Virus record (IMG/VR): IMGVR_UViG_2909303794_000004
Length of the DNA stretch: 52,859 nucleotides
DNA from: a virus
Lineage: Duplodnaviria > Heunggongvirae > Uroviricota > Caudoviricetes
Reading direction: 5' to 3' (one strand)
Shown piece by piece: positions 1,659 to 51,621 of the stretch. The translations under genes and the position numbers were made by a program. The notes beneath the pieces are model-generated. The model saw only the letters and a list, made by a program, of their open reading frames with translations. It was not told the origin of the DNA and searched no databases. The stretch's first letter is position 1. Every line of letters begins with the position of its first letter.

Positions 1659-4130
1659 TTAAGAATCAGCCTGACTCGGGATCAGTTTTTGCCAGATAAC
1701 TGAAACGTATTTTGCCTGGTAACGGGCGTCATCAAGTGCATTATGGCGCTCACCTTCGAATGGAATAGCCGTTCTGGCATCGAAGTCTATGGCTTTCCCC
1801 AGCTCAACGATTGTGCGTACATCGCGATCGTTGTAGTAACGCCACGGGCAGGGGATCCCCTGCCGTTCGTATGAACGGCGCAAAATCGTGTTGTCGAAGT
1901 TGGCTCCATTTCCCCAAACCTGAACAAAAAATTCACCGGAGTTTTCGTCGATAAATTCCCGCAATTGTAACAGTGCATCATCTAACGGGATTTCATCGGT
2001 CATAATGGCAGATTGCGCTTCGCGTGATTGCTTAAGCCACCATTTAATGGTGTCCCGATCAATGACTCCGCCAGCAGTTTCCAGATCGATAGTCTTACTA
2101 AATTCCGGTCCCATATCTCCGGTTTGCGGATCGAAAAATATTGCACCTATTGAGATGATCGGGGCATCAGGATTTTTTCCCATGGTTTCAAGGTCGATCA
2201 TTAGATGGTCACACGTCCTGCTGGTGGATGTGATTTCGTGATGACCGTTCACCTTAATTGAGTGATCTGCCGTCTCGCCAGTTTCATTATCGCTATTGTG
2301 ATGCTGATTGCCGCCAGTGTTCTCCTTGTGTGGATGTTCAGCGCCTTCCATTTCCTCCAGATCATCTTCCTGAACTTCAACCTGATACTCTTCATCGAAT
2401 GTTTCCTGGTATGTTGCGTCGCCCATCACCGCGCCACAATCAGGGCAGTTGCCGCCGCCGGTCTGACCGCAGGCGGTGCAGACTTTTTCCACTTCCAGTT
2501 GCGCCACTGGTTCAGGCTGTTTCGTTTCTGGCTCGTTTTGTAACGCATTTGTGCTGTTTTGTTCCGCTTTTTGGTAGTTCCGTTCCGATTCATGCTGGTT
2601 CTGGTTCACAGAATCGCGGGTCTGGATCCCCTTAACCCATTTCGGATCATTCGGGTCACTAATCCCTTCAACAAATTCACCACGTGATGCAGCAAGCAAC
2701 TTATCGGCGTCAGGCTGGCTGATATTGGCTGCCTGCATAATTTTGTTTACTTCGTCAGCGGTAACTTTTATCGGCTCTGGTTGTTCTGAATCTTCAGCGG
2801 TATCTACATTTTGCGGTAAGCCCGTGTATGTGCCATTTTTTCGGGCAAAATATTCTTCTTTTGTGATTTCAGTGGCGCCAGCAGCCAGTGCCTTATCCAG
2901 ACCAGAAAGTTTGTTTGCGCGACCGTATTTTTCTCCGTCCTTATCTGCGAAGAGGAAATAGAACGGCCCCTCACGCTCTACAGATGGTTCAGCTTCCGGC
3001 GCGGTTTCATTTTTTGGGATATCAGATACCTCAGTTTCCACTGCATCAGTTTGTGTTTCTGATGACTGGAGAACATCAACAGTGCCCAGGTCTGTTTCTT
3101 CATTCTCAAACACGCCCTTTGTCGTCAGGTATTCGCAGATATATTTGTTCAGTGCTATGGGATCTTTGTGAATGTCGATCGGACGCTCACGGACAAGGCC
3201 AAAAATAGTCTGGCGGTCGTAGCGAAGGGCATCAGGCTGTTTGCGCATTGATGCCGAGATACGCTTCCAGTCTTCGCGGTCGTTGTCGATAACTTCTTTT
3301 TTTGCCCAGCGATGGATGCTGCCGTCAATGTTTCCGGCATCCACATCACCAGGCCAGAGAGCGTAGGCCAGTTCGTCATCCAGTGTTTTCCATGTCTGCT
3401 TGTATTCGCGATGAATGGCAGCAATGACCGGGCTGATTTTTCCTGTTGAATTTTCAGTGTACTGTTGATTGGTTCTGGCGCGGGCGAGATCAACAACAGA
3501 CGTGTATTTTCCGGTTTCCTTGCGTTCACCTTCGCGACGTTTTTTCCAGATGCGCATCTCTGCCTGAATTTCGGGCCATTTAGCACCAGGAATACATTTA
3601 TGCTTAACCCACCCAATGGCGTGCAACTTAAGCTCCGGATACATGGCGTTAACTTCTGGCATTTTCATCAACGCTTCAACGATATGTCCGTCGAATGTTG
3701 CCATGTCTTCCTGCAACAATTCCTGTGCGCTAATAACCATATCAACGGTGATGTTTTCACATGTGTCGAACTTAACCATGACAGCGTTCTGTACTTCAGG
3801 GGCCAGCTTGTCAAAAGTGACGTTCATCGGATCGGATTCAGTCTCAACCGGGACAAAAGAAGCAGACTCCTCATCCCAGCGGTTTTCCTGCATATATTCA
3901 GCATCCCATGAATCGAGGGCAGGGCGGGGTATACCGGGTTTATCCTCGCAAACAAGAAATTTATAAGCGCAGTCCTGAGCAGCCGGATAATGTTCCAGGA
4001 ACTGCCAGTGAAATTTTGCTCGAGCACGGCGTTCGTCGCCAGCTTCAATGGCTGTGGCTACAGCCACAGCGCCTTCTTCCCTTGTTGCCAGTTCGTCAGG
4101 AATAGCGGCGCAAATAAAGACTTTACTCAT
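1659..4130 (-). CDS. large exonuclease-family protein: C-terminal DEDDh (DnaQ-like) 3'-5' exonuclease domain, central CxxC…CxxC zinc ribbon
   Basis: 823-aa ORF; C-terminus shows the three exonuclease motifs (DLETMG; NGANFDNTIL; HNALDDARYQ); zinc ribbon CTACGQTGGGNCPDCG mid-protein; sits in the early-left operon where lambdoid recombination exonucleases lie; probably the intact form of the truncated K-12 ydfE. Confidence 0.8.
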   Translation of the reverse strand: MSKVFICAAIPDELATREEGAVAVATAIEAGDERRARAKFHWQFLEHYPAAQDCAYKFLVCEDKPGIPRPALDSWDAEYMQENRWDEESASFVPVETESDPMNVTFDKLAPEVQNAVMVKFDTCENITVDMVISAQELLQEDMATFDGHIVEALMKMPEVNAMYPELKLHAIGWVKHKCIPGAKWPEIQAEMRIWKKRREGERKETGKYTSVVDLARARTNQQYTENSTGKISPVIAAIHREYKQTWKTLDDELAYALWPGDVDAGNIDGSIHRWAKKEVIDNDREDWKRISASMRKQPDALRYDRQTIFGLVRERPIDIHKDPIALNKYICEYLTTKGVFENEETDLGTVDVLQSSETQTDAVETEVSDIPKNETAPEAEPSVEREGPFYFLFADKDGEKYGRANKLSGLDKALAAGATEITKEEYFARKNGTYTGLPQNVDTAEDSEQPEPIKVTADEVNKIMQAANISQPDADKLLAASRGEFVEGISDPNDPKWVKGIQTRDSVNQNQHESERNYQKAEQNSTNALQNEPETKQPEPVAQLEVEKVCTACGQTGGGNCPDCGAVMGDATYQETFDEEYQVEVQEDDLEEMEGAEHPHKENTGGNQHHNSDNETGETADHSIKVNGHHEITSTSRTCDHLMIDLETMGKNPDAPIISIGAIFFDPQTGDMGPEFSKTIDLETAGGVIDRDTIKWWLKQSREAQSAIMTDEIPLDDALLQLREFIDENSGEFFVQVWGNGANFDNTILRRSYERQGIPCPWRYYNDRDVRTIVELGKAIDFDARTAIPFEGERHNALDDARYQAKYVSVIWQKLIPSQADS

Positions 4131-4223: not shown

Positions 4224-4415
4224 TTAAAGACCTGCCGGGATTTCGATATTATCCTGGTGAATAACTTTATCGACCGGGTAACAGTTACCGGGAATTTTCT
4301 GTTCGGTTGCTGCAGTCATACACTCCTGCATTGTCCTGTGCACACTGACTGCAATATCAACTGGCTCTCCGGAAACAAGAAAAACTGTCAGAACAAGCAC
4401 AAATGCTGAATTCAT
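4224..4415 (-). CDS. ydfD: small membrane lysis protein, YdfD-like (63 aa)
   Basis: internal start MNSAFVLVLTVFLVSGE… with N-terminal hydrophobic helix; start overlaps the dicB stop (ATGA); matches remembered K-12 YdfD. Confidence 0.7.
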   Translation of the reverse strand: MNSAFVLVLTVFLVSGEPVDIAVSVHRTMQECMTAATEQKIPGNCYPVDKVIHQDNIEIPAGL

Positions 4416-4600
4416 TGTGCACATCCTTTTGGCATCAGACGTAAACGAGCCAGCATTGAAACAATGCATATTTTATTTAATAGCTCCCGTTCTTGTTTTC
4501 TCTTGTTAATGGCATCTTCAGTAAATACTGGGTTACTGATAGTGACACCAATTTCAAAACAACCTTCAGACGTATTAACGTTTGGTAATAACGTTTTCAT
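4412..4600 (-). CDS. dicB: cell-division inhibitor DicB (62 aa)
   Basis: MKTLLPNVNTSEGCFEIGVTISNPVFTEDAINKRKQERELLNKICIVSMLARLRLMPKGCAQ matches remembered DicB; lies downstream of DicF as in the K-12 dicB operon. Confidence 0.85.
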   Translation of the reverse strand: MKTLLPNVNTSEGCFEIGVTISNPVFTEDAINKRKQERELLNKICIVSMLARLRLMPKGCAQ

Positions 4601-4769
4601 TATCGCGTCCTCAACAATGAATTTTGTGATGCAGTGCCTGGTGCCTCCAGGTGACGTTAACCAGTTAACAATTAACGCCGGATACAGAGAATCCACCCAT
4701 AACACTGTTTTTGGTTTTAACTGTTCCGCGTGCGCTCAGCCGCATTCACCACATCACAAAATTCACTTT

Positions 4770-4827
4770 AAAAAGGGCGGCAGAGCAGTCACGGAGTAAA
4801 ACTGATACCGCCAAACGTCACCAGAAA
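4770..4827 (-). ncRNA. dicF: DicF small regulatory RNA with intrinsic terminator
   Basis: minus-strand sequence UUUCUGGUGACGUUUGGCGGUAUCAGUUUUACUCCGUGACUGCUCUGCCGCCCUUUUU matches remembered DicF, including GC stem and U tail; located between ydfC and dicB. Confidence 0.8.
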
Positions 4828-5167
4828 ATTGATAACAGAGGGCGTTGCAGCGGGGTTGTCACTTAAGCGTATGGTCAACCTGACAACCCGGTGTCCTCAA
4901 CGGGGAAGGAATAACCCCGCCATACTTACCGCCGCGCCATTTCGCGGGTTGCCACAACCGGAAGCGCACGGTCGACGAAAATTTAACGACAGGCTATCTA
5001 TGAACCAGCTACCTCGCCGTGCGCTTTCGCGTTATGGTCTGACCTTTCAGGGAAATATCCTTTCAGTAAACTGTCAGTGCCGGATGCTCACCCGTGTCCG
5101 GCGCACGCACTCCACCTCACCCGTGGAGAACTCCTTAATTACTAACCTTAGCTTTGTTGATTAGCTA

Positions 5168-5386
5168 CTAACGCGGGTATGTAATCATTCTGGCAATGCT
5201 TAATGCCGCTGCTTTTTCCAGATTGGTGATATCCTGCTCCAGAGCGGACAGATTTTCAGCCTGCTTAGCCCTGGTTTCATTGGCCCATTTCAAATCCTGC
5301 GCTGCATTAATTTTCTGGCGCATCCACTCATAAAGTTCATCATCGGTATAGTCTGGCGCGATGATGACGGGTTCTCGTTTCTGCAT
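5168..5386 (-). CDS. ydfC: YdfC-like small protein (72 aa)
   Basis: ORF in the dicB operon position between ydfB and dicF. Confidence 0.65.
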   Translation of the reverse strand: MQKREPVIIAPDYTDDELYEWMRQKINAAQDLKWANETRAKQAENLSALEQDITNLEKAAALSIARMITYPR

Positions 5387-5415
5387 ACTGATTCCTCGCG
5401 GTGCTGTTTCGCTTA

Positions 5416-5544
5416 TCAGCCGTTAGATTTTGCCGAACTGGAAAGCGCCTGTTTAAATTCGTTGAAGCTGAGAGCTTCTTCGCCGTCGGCAAGACCTTCG
5501 AAGTATTCTTCGTAAGCCTTTTCCATGATTGTGTCGAAATCCAT
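5416..5544 (-). CDS. ydfB: YdfB-like small acidic protein (42 aa)
   Basis: manually translated minus-strand ORF MDFDTIMEKAYEEYFEGLADGEEALSFNEFKQALSSSAKSNG; start 1 nt after the ydfA stop; below the 60-aa cutoff of the ORF track. Confidence 0.55.
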   Translation of the reverse strand: MDFDTIMEKAYEEYFEGLADGEEALSFNEFKQALSSSAKSNG

Positions 5545-5545
5545 A

Positions 5546-5701
5546 TCACTCACCTGGGTTTCTTTCCAGCCAGCGACGGGCACCATTTTCGGTTTTAAAC
5601 GTTTTGCTTTTGGTATACGTCATCGCGGTGAACGTACCGTCCTGGTTGGGGAACACGCCACATACCAGAGATTCGCTGTTGCCAAGATCGATAGTATCCA
5701 T
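5546..5701 (-). CDS. ydfA: YdfA-like small protein (51 aa)
   Basis: internal start MDTIDLGNSESLVCGVF… of the 69-aa track ORF; first gene downstream of dicA as in K-12. Confidence 0.6.
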   Translation of the reverse strand: MDTIDLGNSESLVCGVFPNQDGTFTAMTYTKSKTFKTENGARRWLERNPGE

Positions 5702-5815
5702 GCTGACCTCATTTCCCCTTAACGCCGGGGTAGCGGAACTGTTTGCTGAGAACACCGTGCGGTGTCTTGATGGAAAATAATTTAGAATAACCTAACATGA
5801 GAGGCAAGTGTTTTT

Positions 5816-5833
5816 TGTTAGATTGATCTAACA
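5816..5833. promoter_or_regulatory. operator-like palindrome TGTTAGA-N4-TCTAACA in the dicB-operon promoter region
   Basis: inverted repeat read directly (TGTTAGATTGATCTAACA) between the dicA stop and the ydfA start. Confidence 0.5.
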
Positions 5834-5869
5834 AAAAGGGTGGGCGCAACTAATCACTTGAAAAGAATG

Positions 5870-6277
5870 TTATTTTATTGATTTATTTTTACGCGCTTTA
5901 AGCATTTCTTCGAAGAGTTTGTTGAAGTTTTCTACTCTTGCGCGCATTTCAGACAGCAAGGCTTCCTGCTCGGAAGATGGAAGAGCATCGAATAATTCGA
6001 TCAATTCTTTGTGGTTGGGAGTTAGCTCTGTTTCCACATGAAGTTCTTGTGCAGGCACTGGTGCCTTGTCTTCGTCACCAAACATTAGCCATGTAGGTGA
6101 GCACTTCAGAGCATCCGCTAAAGCAAACAATCGTTTTCCGACTGGCTGGGTTTCGTCTCTTTCCCATTGTGAAATTGTGACGTGAGCAACTCCAGCGAGG
6201 CGCGCGGCTTCTCGTTGTGTTAAGCGTAATTCTTTTCGTCGCGCCAGAACTCGCTGGCCCAGGGTTCTTGTATCCAT
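5870..6277 (-). CDS. dicA: HTH XRE-family prophage repressor DicA (135 aa)
   Basis: N-terminal HTH (LTQREAARLAGVAHVTISQWERDE) and C-terminal …EMRARVENFNKLFEEMLKARK closely resemble remembered K-12 DicA; divergent from a Cro-like gene. Confidence 0.9.
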   Translation of the reverse strand: MDTRTLGQRVLARRKELRLTQREAARLAGVAHVTISQWERDETQPVGKRLFALADALKCSPTWLMFGDEDKAPVPAQELHVETELTPNHKELIELFDALPSSEQEALLSEMRARVENFNKLFEEMLKARKNKSIK

Positions 6278-6326
6278 AGTTAGGTAATTCTAATTTTTCT
6301 TGACTTAGGTATCCCGCGCACAATAA

Positions 6327-6344
6327 TGTTAGAAAGGTCTAACA
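6327..6344. promoter_or_regulatory. operator-like palindrome TGTTAGA-N4-TCTAACA in the dicA/dicC divergent promoter region
   Basis: TGTTAGAAAGGTCTAACA between the dicA start (6277) and the dicC-like start (6359); same half-sites as the 5816-5833 site. Confidence 0.55.
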
Positions 6345-6358
6345 AGAGGGGGGCTTTG

Positions 6359-6584
6359 ATGCTTAAAGTTGACGCAATTACTTTTTTTGGCAGCAAAACA
6401 AAGCTTGCCAATGCCGCAGGAGTGAGGCTGGCAAGTGTTGCTGCTTGGGGGATACTTTCCTGAAGGTCGCGCGATGCGTCTACAGGAGGCATCTGGCGGG
6501 GAGCTTCAGTATGATCCCAAAGTTTATGATGAATATCGTAAGACGAAGCGGGCGGGGCGGTTGAACAATGAAAATCACTCCTGA
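6359..6584 (+). pseudogene. dicC: Cro-like regulator DicC homologue, reading frame broken at a G5 run
   Basis: N-terminal HTH part (MLKVDAITFFGSKTKLANAAGVRLASVAAWG) stops at TGA 6461-6463; C-terminal part (…PEGRAMRLQEASGGELQYDPKVYDEYRKTKRAGRLNNENHS) is in the +1 frame to 6584; frames overlap at GGGGG 6447-6451. Confidence 0.5.
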
Positions 6585-8898: not shown

Positions 8899-9225
8899 AT
8901 GACTAAAAATACACGTTTTTCCCCCGAGGTCCGTCAACGGGCAGTTCGTATGGTTCTGGAAAGTCAGGGCGAATATGACTCTCAATGGGCGGCAATTTGT
9001 TCCATTGCCCCAAAGATTGGCTGTACACCAGAGACTCTGCGTGTGTGGGTTCGTCAGCATGAGCGGGATACCGGGAGTGGTGATGGTGGACTCACCACCG
9101 CTGAACGTCAGCGTCTGAAAGAGCTGGAACGTGAAAATCGTGAACTGCGCCGCAGTAACGATATCCTTCGCCAGGCTTCCGCTTATTTTGCGAAGGCGGA
9201 GTTCGACCGCCTCTGGAAAAAATAA
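8899..9225 (+). CDS. IS3-family transposase OrfA (108 aa)
   Basis: [50 protein letters not shown]… matches remembered IS629 OrfA. Confidence 0.9.
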
Positions 9226-10112
9226 TGCCGCTGCTGGATAAGCTGCGTGAGCAGTACGGGGTCGGACCGGTATGCAGTGAACTGCATATTGCCCCGTCAA
9301 CGTATTACCACTGTCAGCAACAGCGACATCATCCTGATAAACGCAGTGCCCGTGCTCAGCGCGATGACTGGCTGAAGAGAGAGATACAGCGCGTATACGA
9401 TGAAAATCATCAGGTGTACGGTGTGCGTAAAGTCTGGCGCCAGTTGTTACGCGAAGGTATCAGGGTGGCCAGATGTACAGTGGCGCGCCTCATGGCGGTT
9501 ATGGGACTTGCCGGTGTTCTCCGGGGTAAAAAGGTCCGTACTACCGTCAGCCGGAAAGCCGTTTCCGCAGGCGACCGCGTAAACCGTCAGTTCGTGGCAG
9601 AACGTCCTGACCAGCTGTGGGTGGCTGATTTTACTTACGTCAGCACATGGCAGGGCTTCGTCTATGTGGCGTTCATCATTGATGTGTTTGCCGGATGTAT
9701 CGTGGGGTGGCGAGTCTCATCGTCTATGGAAACGACATTCGTGCTGGATGCACTGGAGCAGGCGTTGTGGGCCCGTCGGCCGTCCGGCACAGTCCATCAC
9801 AGTGATAAAGGTTCTCAGTATGTATCACTGGCCTATACGGAGCGACTAAAAGAAGCAAAACTGCTGGCATCAACAGGGAGTACAGGTGACTCGTATGACA
9901 ACGCGATGGCGGAGAGCATCAATGGTCTTTACAAAGCGGAGGTAATACACCGTAAGAGCTGGAAAAACCGTGCAGAAGTGGAACTGGCCACACTCACGTG
10001 GGTGGACTGGTATAACAATCGACGATTGCTGGGAAGGCTGGGTCATATCCCTCCGGCAGAAGCAGAAAAAGCTTATTATGCTTCCATCAGAAACGATGAT
10101 CTGGCAGCCTGA
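9225..10112 (+). CDS. IS3-family transposase OrfB (DDE domain)
   Basis: 295-aa ORF overlapping orfA in the -1 frame near an A-run, typical of IS3-family OrfAB. Confidence 0.9.
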   Translation: MPLLDKLREQYGVGPVCSELHIAPSTYYHCQQQRHHPDKRSARAQRDDWLKREIQRVYDENHQVYGVRKVWRQLLREGIRVARCTVARLMAVMGLAGVLRGKKVRTTVSRKAVSAGDRVNRQFVAERPDQLWVADFTYVSTWQGFVYVAFIIDVFAGCIVGWRVSSSMETTFVLDALEQALWARRPSGTVHHSDKGSQYVSLAYTERLKEAKLLASTGSTGDSYDNAMAESINGLYKAEVIHRKSWKNRAEVELATLTWVDWYNNRRLLGRLGHIPPAEAEKAYYASIRNDDLAA

Positions 10113-11500: not shown

Positions 11501-11855
11501 ATACAGCGAACTCCATTGGTTTAGTTGGATATTTACTGTGCTGGACAAAAACGGTTTGCGGGGAAATCTTAGTTAAGTAGAATGACTGCGGGTGCTTGAG
11601 GCTATCTGCCTCGGGCATGGACACCAACGGCAGATAGAGAAAAGCCCCAGTTAACATTACGCGTCCTGCAAGACGCTTAACATTAATCTGAGGCCAATTT
11701 CATGCTAGACACATGTAGGTTAGCCTCTTACGTGCCGAAAGGCACGGAGAAGCAGGCTATTGTTAACACCAAGCTGTAATGTCCCCTTTGAACCATTCTA
11801 AAATGTCCCCAGACAATTCTCTGGGGGATTTTTCATAATCAAAGAGACTGTTACG

Positions 11856-20917: not shown

Positions 20918-21217
20918 AAAAATTCCTTAATACTGATAACTTGGCGCACTATACACACGTTCCTGAAGAAAGCTATAGTTTTTTGATGGGGTTGAAGATG
21001 GCTGGATGTCTAAAATAAACATTGCTTCATATGTTCAACTATGCGTTAATGATTGCGTCGGTTTGAAGAACAGACGATATACGAAGTAGTTTACTAAAGC
21101 AGTTCTCATTTCAGGTGTTATTCACTTATTCCTTCTTTGAGTCTCTCCAATTAAGTACGAAGTCGTTTCTGTTATGCAAACCATTTATGCCGAAAGGCTC
21201 AAGTTAAGGAATGTAGA

Positions 21218-21433
21218 ATGTCAAATAAAATGACTGGTTTAGTAAAATGGTTTAACGCTGATAAAGGTTTCGGCTTTATTTCTCCTGTTGATGGTAGTAA
21301 AGATGTGTTTGTGCATTTTTCTGCGATTCAGAATGATAATTATCGAACCTTATTTGAAGGTCAAAAGGTTACCTTCTCTATAGAGAGTGGTGCTAAAGGT
21401 CCTGCAGCAGCAAATGTCATCATTACTGATTAA
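21218..21433 (+). CDS. cspB: cold-shock protein CspB (71 aa)
   Basis: [67 protein letters not shown]… near-identical to remembered CspB. Confidence 0.9.
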
Positions 21434-21714
21434 AATTCATCGCTCGTCTGTATACGATAACGAAGAAGGCTGATGCCTGAGTAGAGATACGGACAGAGTA
21501 GTGAATATTGGATCTCTTTAATAAAAAGTAAGGAGGTCCAATACATGAAACAATGGCTAGCATATTTGGCAAAATCTTAATCAGGAAAAGTATGCTAACC
21601 ATTGTGGTGAAGTGCAGGTTTGCTGCATGAATAGTTTTACAGCAGAAGCTAACTGCTGGCATGGCAAAACAAAGTGCGTAAGTGGATGACTCCCACAAAA
21701 AGCACCACAATCTC

Positions 21715-22874: not shown

Positions 22875-23765
22875 TCAGGCTGCCAGATCATCGTTTCCGA
22901 TGGAAGCATAATAAGCTTTTTCTGCTTCTGCCGGAGGAGTATGGCCCAGCCTTTCCAGCAATCGTCGATTGTTATACCAGTCCACCCACGTGAGTGTGGC
23001 CAGTTCCACTTCTGCACGGTTTTTCCAGCTCTTACGGTGTATTACCTCCGCTTTGTAAAGGCCATTGATGCTCTCCGCCATCGCGTTGTCATACGAGTCG
23101 CCTGTACTTCCTGTTGATGCCAGTAATCCGGCTTCCTTAAGCCGCTGTGTGTAGGCCAGCGATACATACTGAGAACCTTTATCACTGTGATGGACTGTGC
23201 CGGACGGTCGACGGGCCCATAACGCCTGCTCCAGAGCATCCAGCACAAATGTCGTTTCCATAGACGATGAGACCCGCCACCCCACGATGTATCCGGCAAA
23301 CACATCAATGATGAACGCCACATAGACGACCCCCTGCCATGTGCTGACGTAAGTAGAATCAGCCACCCACAACTGGTCAGGACGTTCTGCCACGAACTGA
23401 CGGTTTACGCGGTCGCCTGCGACAACGGCTTTCCGGCTGATGGTCGTACGGACCTTTTTACCACGGAGAACACCGGCAAGTCCCATAACCGCCATGAGAC
23501 GTGCCACAGTGCATCTGGCCACTCTGATACCTTCCCGTAACAACTGACGCCAGACTTTACGCACACCGTATACCTTGTGATTTTCATCGTATACGCGCTG
23601 TATCTCTTTCTTCAGCCAGTCATCGCGCTGCGCACGGGCACTGCGTTTATCCGGATGATGTCGCTGTTGCTGACAGTGGTAATACGTTGACGGGGCAATA
23701 TGCAGTTCGCTGCATAGCGGTCCGACCCCGTACTGCTCACGCAGCTTATCCAGCAGTGGCATCAT
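22875..23765 (-). CDS. IS3-family transposase OrfB
   Basis: 296-aa ORF homologous to 9225-10112. Confidence 0.9.
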
Positions 23766-24088
23766 TTTTTCCAGAGGCGGTCGAACTCCGCCTTCGCAAA
23801 ATAAGCGGAAGCCTGGCGAAGGATATCGTTACTGCGGCGCAGTTCACGATTTTCACGTTCCAGCTCTTTCAGACGCTGACGTTCAGCGGTGGTGAGCCCG
23901 CCATCACCGCCTCCGGTATCCCGCTCATGCTGGCGTACCCAGACACGCAGAGTCTCCGGTGTACAGCCAATCTTTGGGGCAATGGAACAAATTGCCGCCC
24001 ACTGTGAGTCATATTCGCCCTGACTTTCCAGAACCATACGAATCGCCCTCTGACGGACTTCGGGGGAAAAACGAGTATTTTTAGTCAT
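23762..24088 (-). CDS. IS3-family transposase OrfA
   Basis: 108-aa ORF, 2 substitutions relative to copy 1. Confidence 0.9.
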
Positions 24089-25055: not shown

Positions 25056-25416
25056 GGTAATATTAAATCGGAACATTTACATCGCGGAATGTAAAATTTG
25101 AATAAAAAGGACTCTTCCATGAGCCAAAATTCCTGAAATCTTAAGGGTAAGATAAAAGGTCTTAATCAGAATGACACGTTTTATTAATAAATAAAGCTAT
25201 TCTTTCATTGCTGTGTTTTTCTTTACAAAAGTAATCCTTGCTATGGGTGGTTAATCATGCGTTAATGGTGTTCTGGTTTGTTACAAATTTATCTGAAGCA
25301 GTCATTGTTATAATTTTATTATTTGTACCTCTTGAGATTTCCTTGTTGGTTTTTCTCTCTGATATTTTTTTCGGACCATTCTGCCCAAGGGCTAATTTCT
25401 TCAAAAGGTAATAATT

Positions 25417-25629
25417 ATGTCTAACAAAATGACTGGTTTAGTGAAATGGTTTAACCCTGAAAAAGGTTTTGGTTTCATCACGCCGAAAGATGGCAGCAAA
25501 GATGTGTTTGTCCATTTCTCAGCAATTCAGAGCAACGATTTCAAAACATTAACTGAGAATCAGGAAGTTGAATTTGGTATTGAGAACGGACCTAAAGGTC
25601 CTGCCGCTGTTCATGTAGTGGCGCTTTGA
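25417..25629 (+). CDS. cspI: cold-shock protein CspI (70 aa)
   Basis: [70 protein letters not shown] matches remembered CspI. Confidence 0.9.
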
Positions 25630-25835
25630 GGTAGACAATATTACAAACCATATTCACTTTAGATGCCCGTGTTGTCATGGTTCCCAGTATAGAACATCAT
25701 CTTTTGATGTTTCTGACATGAATCCTTTCGGGGCAAAATGTATCTTTTGTAAATCAATGATGATTACATTTGATAATATTTCACAATACTTAAATGCCAG
25801 CCGTCTGTCGTTGGATTTAAAAAAGTGAAAATGAA

Positions 25836-26627: not shown

Positions 26628-27074
26628 TTAGCGTGGTAAGATCTGTGTAGTTTTCTGGATGCTTTCAGTAATTTTCTGGATGCTTTCAGTAAATAGTAAT
26701 GAGTTATCAAAGGCATAGTAATATCTTTGGTGTTCCTGGATATTTGTAACCCATCGGAAAACTCCTGCTTTAGCAAGATTTTCCCTGTATTGTTGAAATG
26801 TGATTTCTTTTGATTTCAACTTATTATAGGAGGTCTCTATAAGATGTTTGTTTCTGGAGAATTTAACATTTACAACCTTTTTGAGTCCTTTTACTAACAC
26901 TATGTTGTCGTTTTCTAACACAATGTGAATATTATCTGTGGCTAAATAGTAAATATAAAGTGAGACATTGTGACGTTTTAGCTCAGAATAAAATAATTCA
27001 CAGTTTAAATCTTTACGCACTTGATCGAATATTTCTTTAAAAATGGCAGCCTGAGCCATTGGTAAACCTTCCAT
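26628..27074 (-). CDS. ydfO: YdfO-like protein (148 aa) with C-terminal 7-aa tandem repeat
   Basis: ORF in the K-12 ydfO position; 3' end contains a 21-bp tandem duplication encoding [14 protein letters not shown]. Confidence 0.6.
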
Positions 27075-51046: not shown

Positions 51047-51621
51047 TGGCATTCAGAATGAGTGAACAACCACGGACCATAAAAATTTATAATCTGCTGG
51101 CCGGAACTAATGAATTTATTGGTGAAGGTGACGCATATATTCCGCCTCATACAGGTCTGCCAGCAAACAGTATCGATATTGCACCGCCAGATATTCCGGC
51201 AGGCTTCGTGGCTGTTTTCAACAGTGATGAGGCATCGTGGCATCTCGTTGAAGATCATCGGGGTAAAACGGTTTATGACGTGGCTTCCGGCGACGCGTTA
51301 TTTATTTCTGAACTCGGTCCGTTACCGGAAAATGTTACCTGGTTATCGCCGGGAGGGGAATATCAGAAGTGGAACGGCACAGCCTGGGTGAAGGATACGG
51401 AAGCAGAAAAACTGTTCCGGATCCGGGAGGCGGAAGAAACAAAAAACAGCCTGATGCAGGTAGCCAGTGAGCATATTGCGCCGCTTCAGGATGCTGCAGA
51501 TCTGGAAATTGCAACGGAGGAAGAAATCTCGTTGCTGGAAGCATGGAAAAAGTATCGGGTATTGCTGAACCGTGTTGATACGTCAACTGCACAGGATATT
51601 GAATGGCCAGCACTGCCGTAG
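51046..51621 (+). CDS. tfa: tail fibre assembly protein Tfa (191 aa)
   Basis: start overlaps the stf stop; size and position as lambda tfa. Confidence 0.85.

Follow-up and report, generated by a model that had tools for sequence, protein, structure and literature searches.

Operator-like palindromes on both sides of dicA in a Qin-like prophage of Escherichia coli

Genes and palindromic sites of the dicA region

The stretch of viral DNA analysed here, 52,859 bases long and referred to throughout as the window, is an E. coli Qin-like lambdoid prophage with a dicA allele other than that of K-12. A 1.3-kb query around dicA finds matches in 3,881 of 5,426 complete E. coli genomes, with at least 80% of the query covered in 538 and at least 99% identity in 183. 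The best genome match, strain MB22, is 99.8% identical and its RefSeq annotation agrees. The features of the region are the following.

4224–5701, minus strand: controlled operon ydfA-ydfB-ydfC-DicF-dicB-ydfD (Pfam, Rfam, RefSeq annotation of MB22)
4224–4415, minus strand: ydfD (operon annotation)
4412–4600, minus strand: dicB (Pfam DicB)
4775–4826, minus strand: DicF sRNA (Rfam, 76.7 bits)
5168–5386, minus strand: ydfC (operon annotation)
5416–5544, minus strand: ydfB (operon annotation)
5546–5701, minus strand: ydfA (DUF1391; Pfam)
5779–5784, minus strand: putative −10 of the dicB-operon promoter (dicBp), TAAATT, 17-nt spacer (sequence reading; start predicted near 5771–5772)
5780–5797, no strand: candidate proximal dicBp operator, imperfect, TGTTAG-GTTATT-CTAAAT in the minus reading, TGTTAGGTTATTCTAAAT (relaxed core; K-12 position)
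5802–5807, minus strand: putative dicBp −35, TTGCCT (sequence reading)
5816–5833, no strand: candidate distal dicBp operator, perfect, TGTTAG-ATCAAT-CTAACA in the minus reading (exact match; K-12 homology)
5870–6277, minus strand: dicA-family repressor gene, 135 aa (NF007257, HTH_3, K-12 homology)
6278–6295, no strand: weak 'Oa'-like site, AGTTAG-GTAATT-CTAATT on the plus strand, AATTAGAATTACCTAACT on the minus strand (relaxed-core match)
6287–6292, minus strand: putative dicA −10, TAGAAT, with a poor −35, GGGATA, at 6310–6315 (sequence reading; start predicted near 6280)
6300–6327, plus strand: predicted dicC promoter, TTGACT (6300–6305), 16 nt, AATAAT (6322–6327) (promoter scan, 10/12 consensus; arranged as in the K-12 dicC promoter)
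6327–6344, no strand: candidate operator equivalent to K-12 Oc, perfect, TGTTAG-AAAGGT-CTAACA (exact match; alignment with K-12 Oc)
6359–6463, plus strand: dicC (P22 Cro-like), cut to 34 aa, the remainder lying in another frame to 6584

The product of 5870–6277 matches the NCBIfam model NF007257, 'transcriptional repressor DicA', over its full length with 224.7 bits (cut-off 101) and is 57% identical to K-12 DicA. Pfam recognises only helix-turn-helix families in it (HTH_3), the S24 peptidase (autocleavage) domain being absent. Residues 1–71 align without gaps to the N-terminal DNA-binding domain of P22 C2 (E = 1e-18); the structure of a C2 complex with an operator is solved. The operon on the same strand contains Pfam matches to DUF1391, DicB and DUF1482, and its products are the division inhibitors DicF and DicB and the lysis protein YdfD. 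The labels dicA, dicC, ydfA, DicF, dicB and ydfD, which the earlier note had given from the letters alone, are all correct by profile, Rfam and homology matches. A consensus fold of the dicB-operon leader yields a second hairpin with modest covariation and a first hairpin that is broken by the alignment. On the opposite strand, dicC lacks 2 bp that strain MB22 (99.8% identical) has, as an alignment with MB22 and K-12 shows. The gene is kept open in all 83 related loci, at 74–75 aa except for a partial one with 60 aa, and its orthologue, when intact, scores 165.8 bits against NF007282 and also matches PF14549 (P22_Cro). In the window dicC is thus present as a gene and probably non-functional.

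Two perfect palindromes lie on either side of dicA. TGTTAGATTGATCTAACA at 5816–5833 and TGTTAGAAAGGTCTAACA at 6327–6344 are the sole exact matches to TGTTAGA-N4-TCTAACA in the whole window, and none of 100 dinucleotide-preserving shuffles yields any copy. Both 18-mers that the earlier note had described at these positions are thus present, and the search for further copies showed that the motif is not common elsewhere in the window. The heptamer TGTTAGA alone is not enriched in the window (6 observed against 4.7 expected), so it is the pairing in inverted orientation that carries the signal. The whole window has just four matches to a relaxed core, GTTAG-N6-CTAA, all of them around dicA (5782–5796, 5817–5832, 6279–6293 and 6328–6343), against 0.19 expected, a count reached in 0 of 100 shuffles. 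This search leaves two recognisable sites in each of the two regions, dicA/dicC and dicBp. When three mismatches are tolerated the window contains two extra matches, at 5780–5797, which adjoins the first site, and at 26903–26920, a distant match that corresponds to the chance-level expectation. The inverted repeat at 5816–5833 grows through T5/A5 flanks to 11-bp arms spanning 5812–5837.

In the dicA/dicC divergent promoter region, the first base of the palindrome at 6327–6344 is the final base of the dicC −10, and the site extends to about +10, over the expected start site. The second relaxed match of this region, the Oa-like site at 6278–6295, shares bases with the start codon of dicA and with its putative −10. 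It is invariant in 20 haplotypes, an invariance confounded by promoter and start-codon constraint, and it does not clearly track the immunity types described below; it may be a DicC site or just promoter sequence. About 9 nt separate the putative dicA −10 from the ATG, which would leave the dicA mRNA almost without a leader. This weak putative promoter agrees with the finding of Yun et al. (2012) that there is no consensus promoter and that DicA is needed for activation. An Om-like site is not recognisable in the window.

Reading along the minus strand, the dicA stop (5870) is followed by 36 nt, the palindrome (5833–5816), 8 nt, the putative −35, 17 nt and the putative −10 of dicBp. The window dicBp hexamers agree with the consensus at 8 of 12 positions, under the threshold of the promoter scan, and were not called; at the homologous position of type B and type C loci the scan calls TTGACC-18-TAAATT and TTGACG-17-TAAATT, respectively. 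The perfect palindrome lies upstream of the −35, off the core promoter, and alone may therefore repress weakly. A second, imperfect site at 5780–5797, absent from the earlier note, is located within the promoter spacer and over the −10. The earlier placement of 5816–5833 at the dicB-operon promoter holds, through its alignment with K-12 dicBp, whereas overlap with the core promoter belongs to 5780–5797 instead.

Conservation of the sites and co-variation with the repressor

Orthologous loci of E. ruysiae, E. albertii, two Citrobacter species and Buttiauxella carry TGTTAG-N6-CTAACA at both positions with different centres (ACCTTT, ACTTTT, ATATTC, GTATAT and GTATGT at Oc; ATCAAT, ACCAAT, TTTTAT and GTTTAC at dicBp). 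On this comparison the conserved unit reads as TGTTAG-N6-CTAACA, or, with its flanks, as the 20-bp TTGTTAG-N6-CTAACAA. The seventh base of TGTTAGA varies among the orthologues and is therefore not in the conserved half-site. The half-site first proposed, TGTTAGA, stands in its TGTTAG part and loses its inner A, the true half-site having 6 bp, or 7 bp with the outer T.

The same pattern is visible within the allele. Among 82 loci with the dicA allele of the window, whose haplotypes are related so that the statistics are descriptive, 3 of the 24 half-site columns of the two perfect sites vary (each an outermost base), against 8 of the 12 columns of the 6-bp spacers (Fisher p = 0.0018, the haplotypes not being phylogenetically independent); 48 of 139 other intergenic columns are variable. 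At 6327–6344 variation affects 1 of 12 half-site columns versus 3 of 6 spacer columns (20 haplotypes), and at 5816–5833 2 of 12 versus 5 of 6 (34 haplotypes). The proximal site at 5780–5797 is invariant in all 12 half-site columns of 34 haplotypes.

The same gene arrangement is found with other repressors in further E. coli prophages and in Enterobacter, Pantoea and Erwinia. Three immunity types were compared. Type A comprises the window, K-12, E. ruysiae, E. albertii, Citrobacter and Buttiauxella; type B comprises GN06098, FORC_044, Enterobacter, Pantoea and Erwinia; type C comprises 19AR0254, FDAARGOS_144, O111 strain 110512 and EL361. Their sites are as follows.

Type A: Oc TGTTAG-N6-CTAACA; distal TGTTAG-N6-CTAACA; proximal TGTTAG-N6-CTAAAT
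Type B: Oc CCTTAG-N6-CTAAGG; distal ACTTAG-N6-CTACAC; proximal TCTTAG-N6-CTAAAT
Type C: Oc ATTGAG-TTTT-CTCAAT; distal CTTGAG-TTTT-CTCATC; proximal not clearly assigned

Counts of the type-specific 5-mers were used in place of a cross-locus mismatch matrix. That matrix, built from the best 6-N6-6 palindrome of each locus, was rejected because the automatic choice fell on unrelated palindromes in K-12, in Citrobacter and in a single type C locus, and on the wrong register in type C. In 12 loci the words GTTAG, CTTAG and TTGAG correspond to types A, B and C; each locus has its own word on either side of dicA and neither of the others, apart from a single CTTAG that belongs to a dicC −35 region. 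Similarly, the left half of the proximal dicBp site tracks the immunity type. When the repressor changes, the operators to the left and right of dicA thus change along with it, which argues that one cognate protein would read both.

At least 120 exact matches to TTGTTAG-N6-CTAACAA occur in viral contigs, of which only those next to a dicA gene were used. Among the 120 listed, 43 sit 39–62 bp from the gene of a DicA homologue; the other two thirds or so, with no DicA homologue nearby, are probably coincidental, the collection being very large.

The K-12 locus and other phage switches

K-12 Oc, TTGTTAGTTATGACTAACAA, aligns column for column with positions 6326–6345 of the window. This alignment, together with the overlap with the dicC −10, bears out the earlier assignment of the 6327–6344 copy to the dicA/dicC divergent promoter region. 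In K-12 dicBp, TGTTAGCTATAGCATACA, upstream of the −35 TTGACC, is homologous to the distal site at 5816–5833, and TGTTAGTCATGGCTAATC, across the spacer and the −10, occupies the same position as the proximal site at 5780–5797. The K-12 distal site (TGTTAG...CATACA) has two mismatches relative to the perfect palindrome of the window.

Work on K-12 has defined the function of these elements. Oc in high copy titrates DicA and mediates DicA-dependent repression in vivo, and a single A-to-C change (CTAACA to CTCACA) abolishes DicA binding and repression (Yun et al. 2012, PMC3441716). In the same study Oc overlaps the −10 of the dicC promoter mapped by 5'RACE, represses dicC, and is required for DicA-dependent activation of the weak dicA promoter. 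The K-12 operators are given as three, Oc, Om and Oa, of which DicA bound Oc alone, the proposed operators Om and Oa showing no DicA binding (PMC10448788; PMC3441716). Deletion of dicA derepresses K-12 dicBp 22-fold and deletion of dicC does not (Ragunathan et al. 2023, PMC10448788). With reference to Béjar 1988 and Yun 2012, that paper places operators in both intergenic regions, and it terms DicA binding at dicBp 'predicted'; the operator maps of Béjar et al. (1986/1988) are taken here as later papers represent them. DicA lacks an Ala-Gly cleavage site, and induction in K-12 proceeds through the antirepressor Rem, heat or urea, with bistable behaviour (PMC10448788). Switching of dicBp, whether spontaneous or brought on by urea or heat, is lost when dicC is deleted from K-12.

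The window shares with K-12 Qin the order and orientation of the genes, a 135-aa repressor, the downstream ydfABC-dicF-dicB-ydfD genes, the TGTTAG-N6-CTAACA core at the dicC −10 and two dicBp sites in register, 36 bp apart from centre to centre in the window versus 35 bp in K-12. The two loci differ in the diverged repressor, in the perfect distal site and in the frameshifted dicC of the window, and the window prophage retains an intact 823-aa exonuclease gene and others lost from K-12.

The immunity region also resembles P22 immC, as the DNA-binding domain of C2 aligns with DicA and DicC matches the P22_Cro family. Each P22 operator, too, is a pseudo-palindrome of 18 bp, whose 4-bp centre is unspecific and whose TTAA core is recognised by Val33 in helix 3. 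This valine is retained in DicA (AHVTISQW). In contrast to P22, DicA has 135 aa, against 216 aa for C2, and lacks an S24 peptidase domain, the TGTTAG half-site is not the P22 consensus, and two recognisable sites rather than three are found per promoter. The logic is that of lambda cI/Cro: a repressor that shuts the rightward lytic promoter and turns on its own weak divergent promoter, a second operator set for the leftward early operon, and a Cro-like antagonist acting on the same sites. The sequences and the operator motif are, however, unrelated to those of lambda, dicA and the leftward operon are co-directional and only about 100 bp apart, and there is no RecA-dependent cleavage. Gifsy-type repressors are similarly short, uncleaved and inactivated by a small antirepressor (PMC10448788), a likeness restricted to the mode of induction.

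Probable control by DicA and alternative readings

The sequences and positions of the sites, their homology to K-12 Oc, their conservation and their co-variation with the repressor were observed directly, and others have shown in K-12 that DicA binds Oc, represses dicC and dicBp and activates its own gene. The two perfect palindromes are very probably the high-affinity DicA operators of a Qin-type (P22-like) prophage immunity region, normally shared with DicC. DicA-type control of both its own switch and the DicF/DicB/YdfD operon, the central proposal of the earlier note, is thereby supported by K-12 literature, homology and co-variation. A DicA dimer of this allele would read (T)TGTTAG half-sites through its P22-C2-like helix-turn-helix, the 6-bp centre being non-specific. 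At 6327–6344 the dimer would lie over the start site and the last part of the dicC −10, blocking RNA polymerase at the dicC promoter, and would stimulate the weak divergent dicA promoter (positive autoregulation). At 5816–5833 a dimer would abut the putative dicBp −35, and a second dimer on the weaker site at 5780–5797, over the −10, would probably join in to turn ydfABC-dicF-dicB-ydfD off. The strong distal site may help to load the weak proximal one, by analogy with lambda and P22. DicC, the Cro analogue, would normally compete for the same sites and is truncated here.

Two extensions of DicA control were considered for type A loci and are rather unlikely to hold: that DicA at dicBp also acts as a roadblock or in a loop with Oc, and that helix 2 or the N-terminal arm sets specificity. 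With no terminator or hairpin between dicA and the toxic operon, bound DicA would block read-through from the dicA promoter, and dimers at 5816–5833 and 5780–5797 could form a roadblock against transcription from this self-activated promoter. The distal operator might also pair with Oc in a loop enclosing dicA. The distance between the two centres is 511 bp in the window as in K-12, E. ruysiae and E. albertii, and spacings across loci also include 517–519 and about 564 bp; these values give no support to helical phasing between Oc and the distal site and no evidence for looping was seen in them. If either the roadblock or the loop were true, the repressor level would be directly coupled to silencing of DicF, DicB and YdfD. 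As regards specificity, types A and B have an identical recognition helix (AHVTISQWERD) yet different words, GTTAG and CTTAG, so the determinant would sit in helix 2 or the N-terminal arm.

The palindrome at 5816–5833 could instead function at the RNA level, as a 3' hairpin or terminator of the dicA transcript, with its likeness to 6327–6344 secondary. With its T5/A5 flanks (5812–5837) it folds as an 11-bp hairpin of −9.6 kcal/mol (z = −6.65), it is located 36 nt past the dicA stop in a region where nothing else up to dicBp folds (−0.7 kcal/mol), and types B and C have separate stable hairpins at the corresponding place. The stem is A/U-rich, however, with just two G-C pairs, and no U tract follows it on either strand (ACACUU or GGGUGG follows). 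Terminator scans call nothing there, and a Rho-independent terminator, which combines a G+C-rich stem with a U tract, was rejected for this site. After dicA in types B and C the scan called a terminator at the Pantoea locus only, the other structures being stable hairpins whose loops are long or whose T tails are weak. The K-12 homologue, TGTTAG...CATACA, makes a hairpin impossible and retains the operator half-site, and in types B and C the imperfect palindrome at this place still bears the half-site of its own Oc, which fits a protein site and not a hairpin. It is unlikely that 5816–5833 acts chiefly at the RNA level, and the version in which the resemblance to Oc is secondary is very improbable.

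Equally improbable is that the sites are read mainly by a protein other than DicA, whether DicC by itself or some host factor, for example YjdC. In a preprint with DicC ChIP-seq data the motif is a TTAG/CTAA-like palindrome, TT(A/C/T)G...C(G/A/T)AA, and the top peak falls at the dicA/dicC promoter; according to a figure legend in PMC11430063, YjdC is able to repress the targets of DicA in its absence. Against this reading stand the specific binding of K-12 DicA to Oc in vivo with its sensitivity to one base (PMC3441716), the derepression of dicBp by loss of dicA and not of dicC (PMC10448788), and the intact sites of the window despite its truncated dicC. Sharing of operators between repressor and Cro is the rule in P22 and lambda, and DicC binding would thus be complementary to that of DicA and not a replacement for it. 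Functionless resemblance, by chance or through recent local duplication, is the least likely reading and was refuted: there are just two copies of a short, A/T-rich sequence, but no shuffle produced even one, flanks and central bases differ between the copies, so that these are no duplication, and both sites are kept in other genera with divergent centres and co-vary with the repressor type. Operators for DicA, normally shared with DicC, remain the preferred reading of the pair.

The DicA-operator model is already published (Béjar 1988, as cited by others; Yun 2012; Ragunathan 2023). The additions made here are modest and consist of the four-site anatomy, the 6-bp half-site, the population and cross-type support, and the dicC frameshift, which is found only in the window. 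Four operator-like sites and two promoters now have exact coordinates, and a widespread allele is placed in the published DicA/DicC model, with little import beyond confirmation. The co-variation in three immunity types constitutes comparative support for direct binding at dicBp, which the literature had termed 'predicted'. Provided that the dicC deletion is genuine and no error of sequencing, the switch has lost its Cro-like arm in the window; the frameshift would probably lock the switch in the DicA (repressed) state, which suggests a strain unable to flip it via DicC. In addition, the window allele and K-12 DicA are predicted to share specificity, and co-resident prophages could therefore cross-regulate.

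DicA recognition specificity and the start of dicA

Alignment of the DicA protein of the window with those of four comparison dicA loci (L107, L110, L008 and L009) reveals that the recognition helix, AHVTISQWERD, is identical in type A and type B repressors, the immunity types whose operator half-sites carry the words GTTAG and CTTAG, respectively. The operators of the two types differ at half-site position 2, which is G in type A and C in type B. The repressors differ in helix 2: type A has TQREAARLAG there and type B has SQAALGKLVK, which closely resembles P22 C2. The specificity determinant of DicA may lie outside helix 3.

The region preceding the dicA ATG (6277–6292, minus strand) displays a good match to a -10 element, TAGAAT, while no Shine-Dalgarno sequence is visible there. 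Judged from the sequence alone, the dicA mRNA may be nearly leaderless, because TAGAAT ends ~9 nt before the ATG and no Shine-Dalgarno sequence is seen, an arrangement similar to that of lambda cI transcribed from PRM.

The dicC frameshift and the wider prophage

In dicC, the divergent Cro-like gene (6359–6584, plus strand), a 2-bp deletion after ~6454 (GATACT^TTCC, against GATACTGGTTCC in the 99.8%-identical E. coli strain MB22) cuts the product to 34 residues. The gene is open in all 83 related loci, encoding 74–75 residues, or 60 in one partial case. Either dicC is a genuine pseudogene here or the deletion arose as an error in assembly. Features elsewhere in the prophage include:

1659–4130, minus strand, intact 3'-5' exonuclease gene (823 aa) downstream of ydfD
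8899–10112, plus strand, IS3-family element with an ALIL frameshifting pseudoknot (Rfam, 120.9 bits)
~23691–23807, minus strand, second IS3-family element with an ALIL frameshifting pseudoknot (Rfam, 120.2 bits)

In K-12 Qin an IS2 insertion has truncated this exonuclease gene, leaving the ydfE/insD remnant, whereas the window copy is intact; on this side the window prophage is less decayed than Qin. The first IS3-family element is preceded by a 124-aa methyltransferase-like ORF; the MB22 annotation lists the counterpart of this ORF as a SAM-dependent methyltransferase gene with a frameshift. Further Rfam matches, at 11590–11761, 21057–21449, 25272–25656 and 51389–51587, comprise a sok antitoxin RNA, two cspA-type thermoregulator leaders and an IS009 RNA, a content typical of Qin-like prophages.

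From the dicA stop codon to the dicB-operon leader

Two hairpin-forming elements are located directly downstream of the predicted start site of dicBp, the inferred promoter of the toxic dicB operon:

5753–5766, minus strand, first leader element, ACACCGCACGGTGT
~5714–5729, minus strand, second leader element, CCCCGGCGTTAAGGGG

Conservation of both extends across the three immunity types and to other genera. Three of eight loci show CG-to-GC swaps in the second element, and neither element matches a family in the Rfam search. These hairpins may act as a 5' stabiliser or as a nut/put-like antitermination signal.

The interval upstream, from the dicA stop codon to dicBp (5834–5869), contains neither a hairpin nor a terminator in the window, and the same holds in K-12. 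At the matching interval types B and C, compared through L107, L108, L008 and L009, carry stable hairpins, and that of Pantoea is called a terminator by the scan. In type A, transcription running on past dicA towards the toxic operon would need another stop, perhaps bound DicA.
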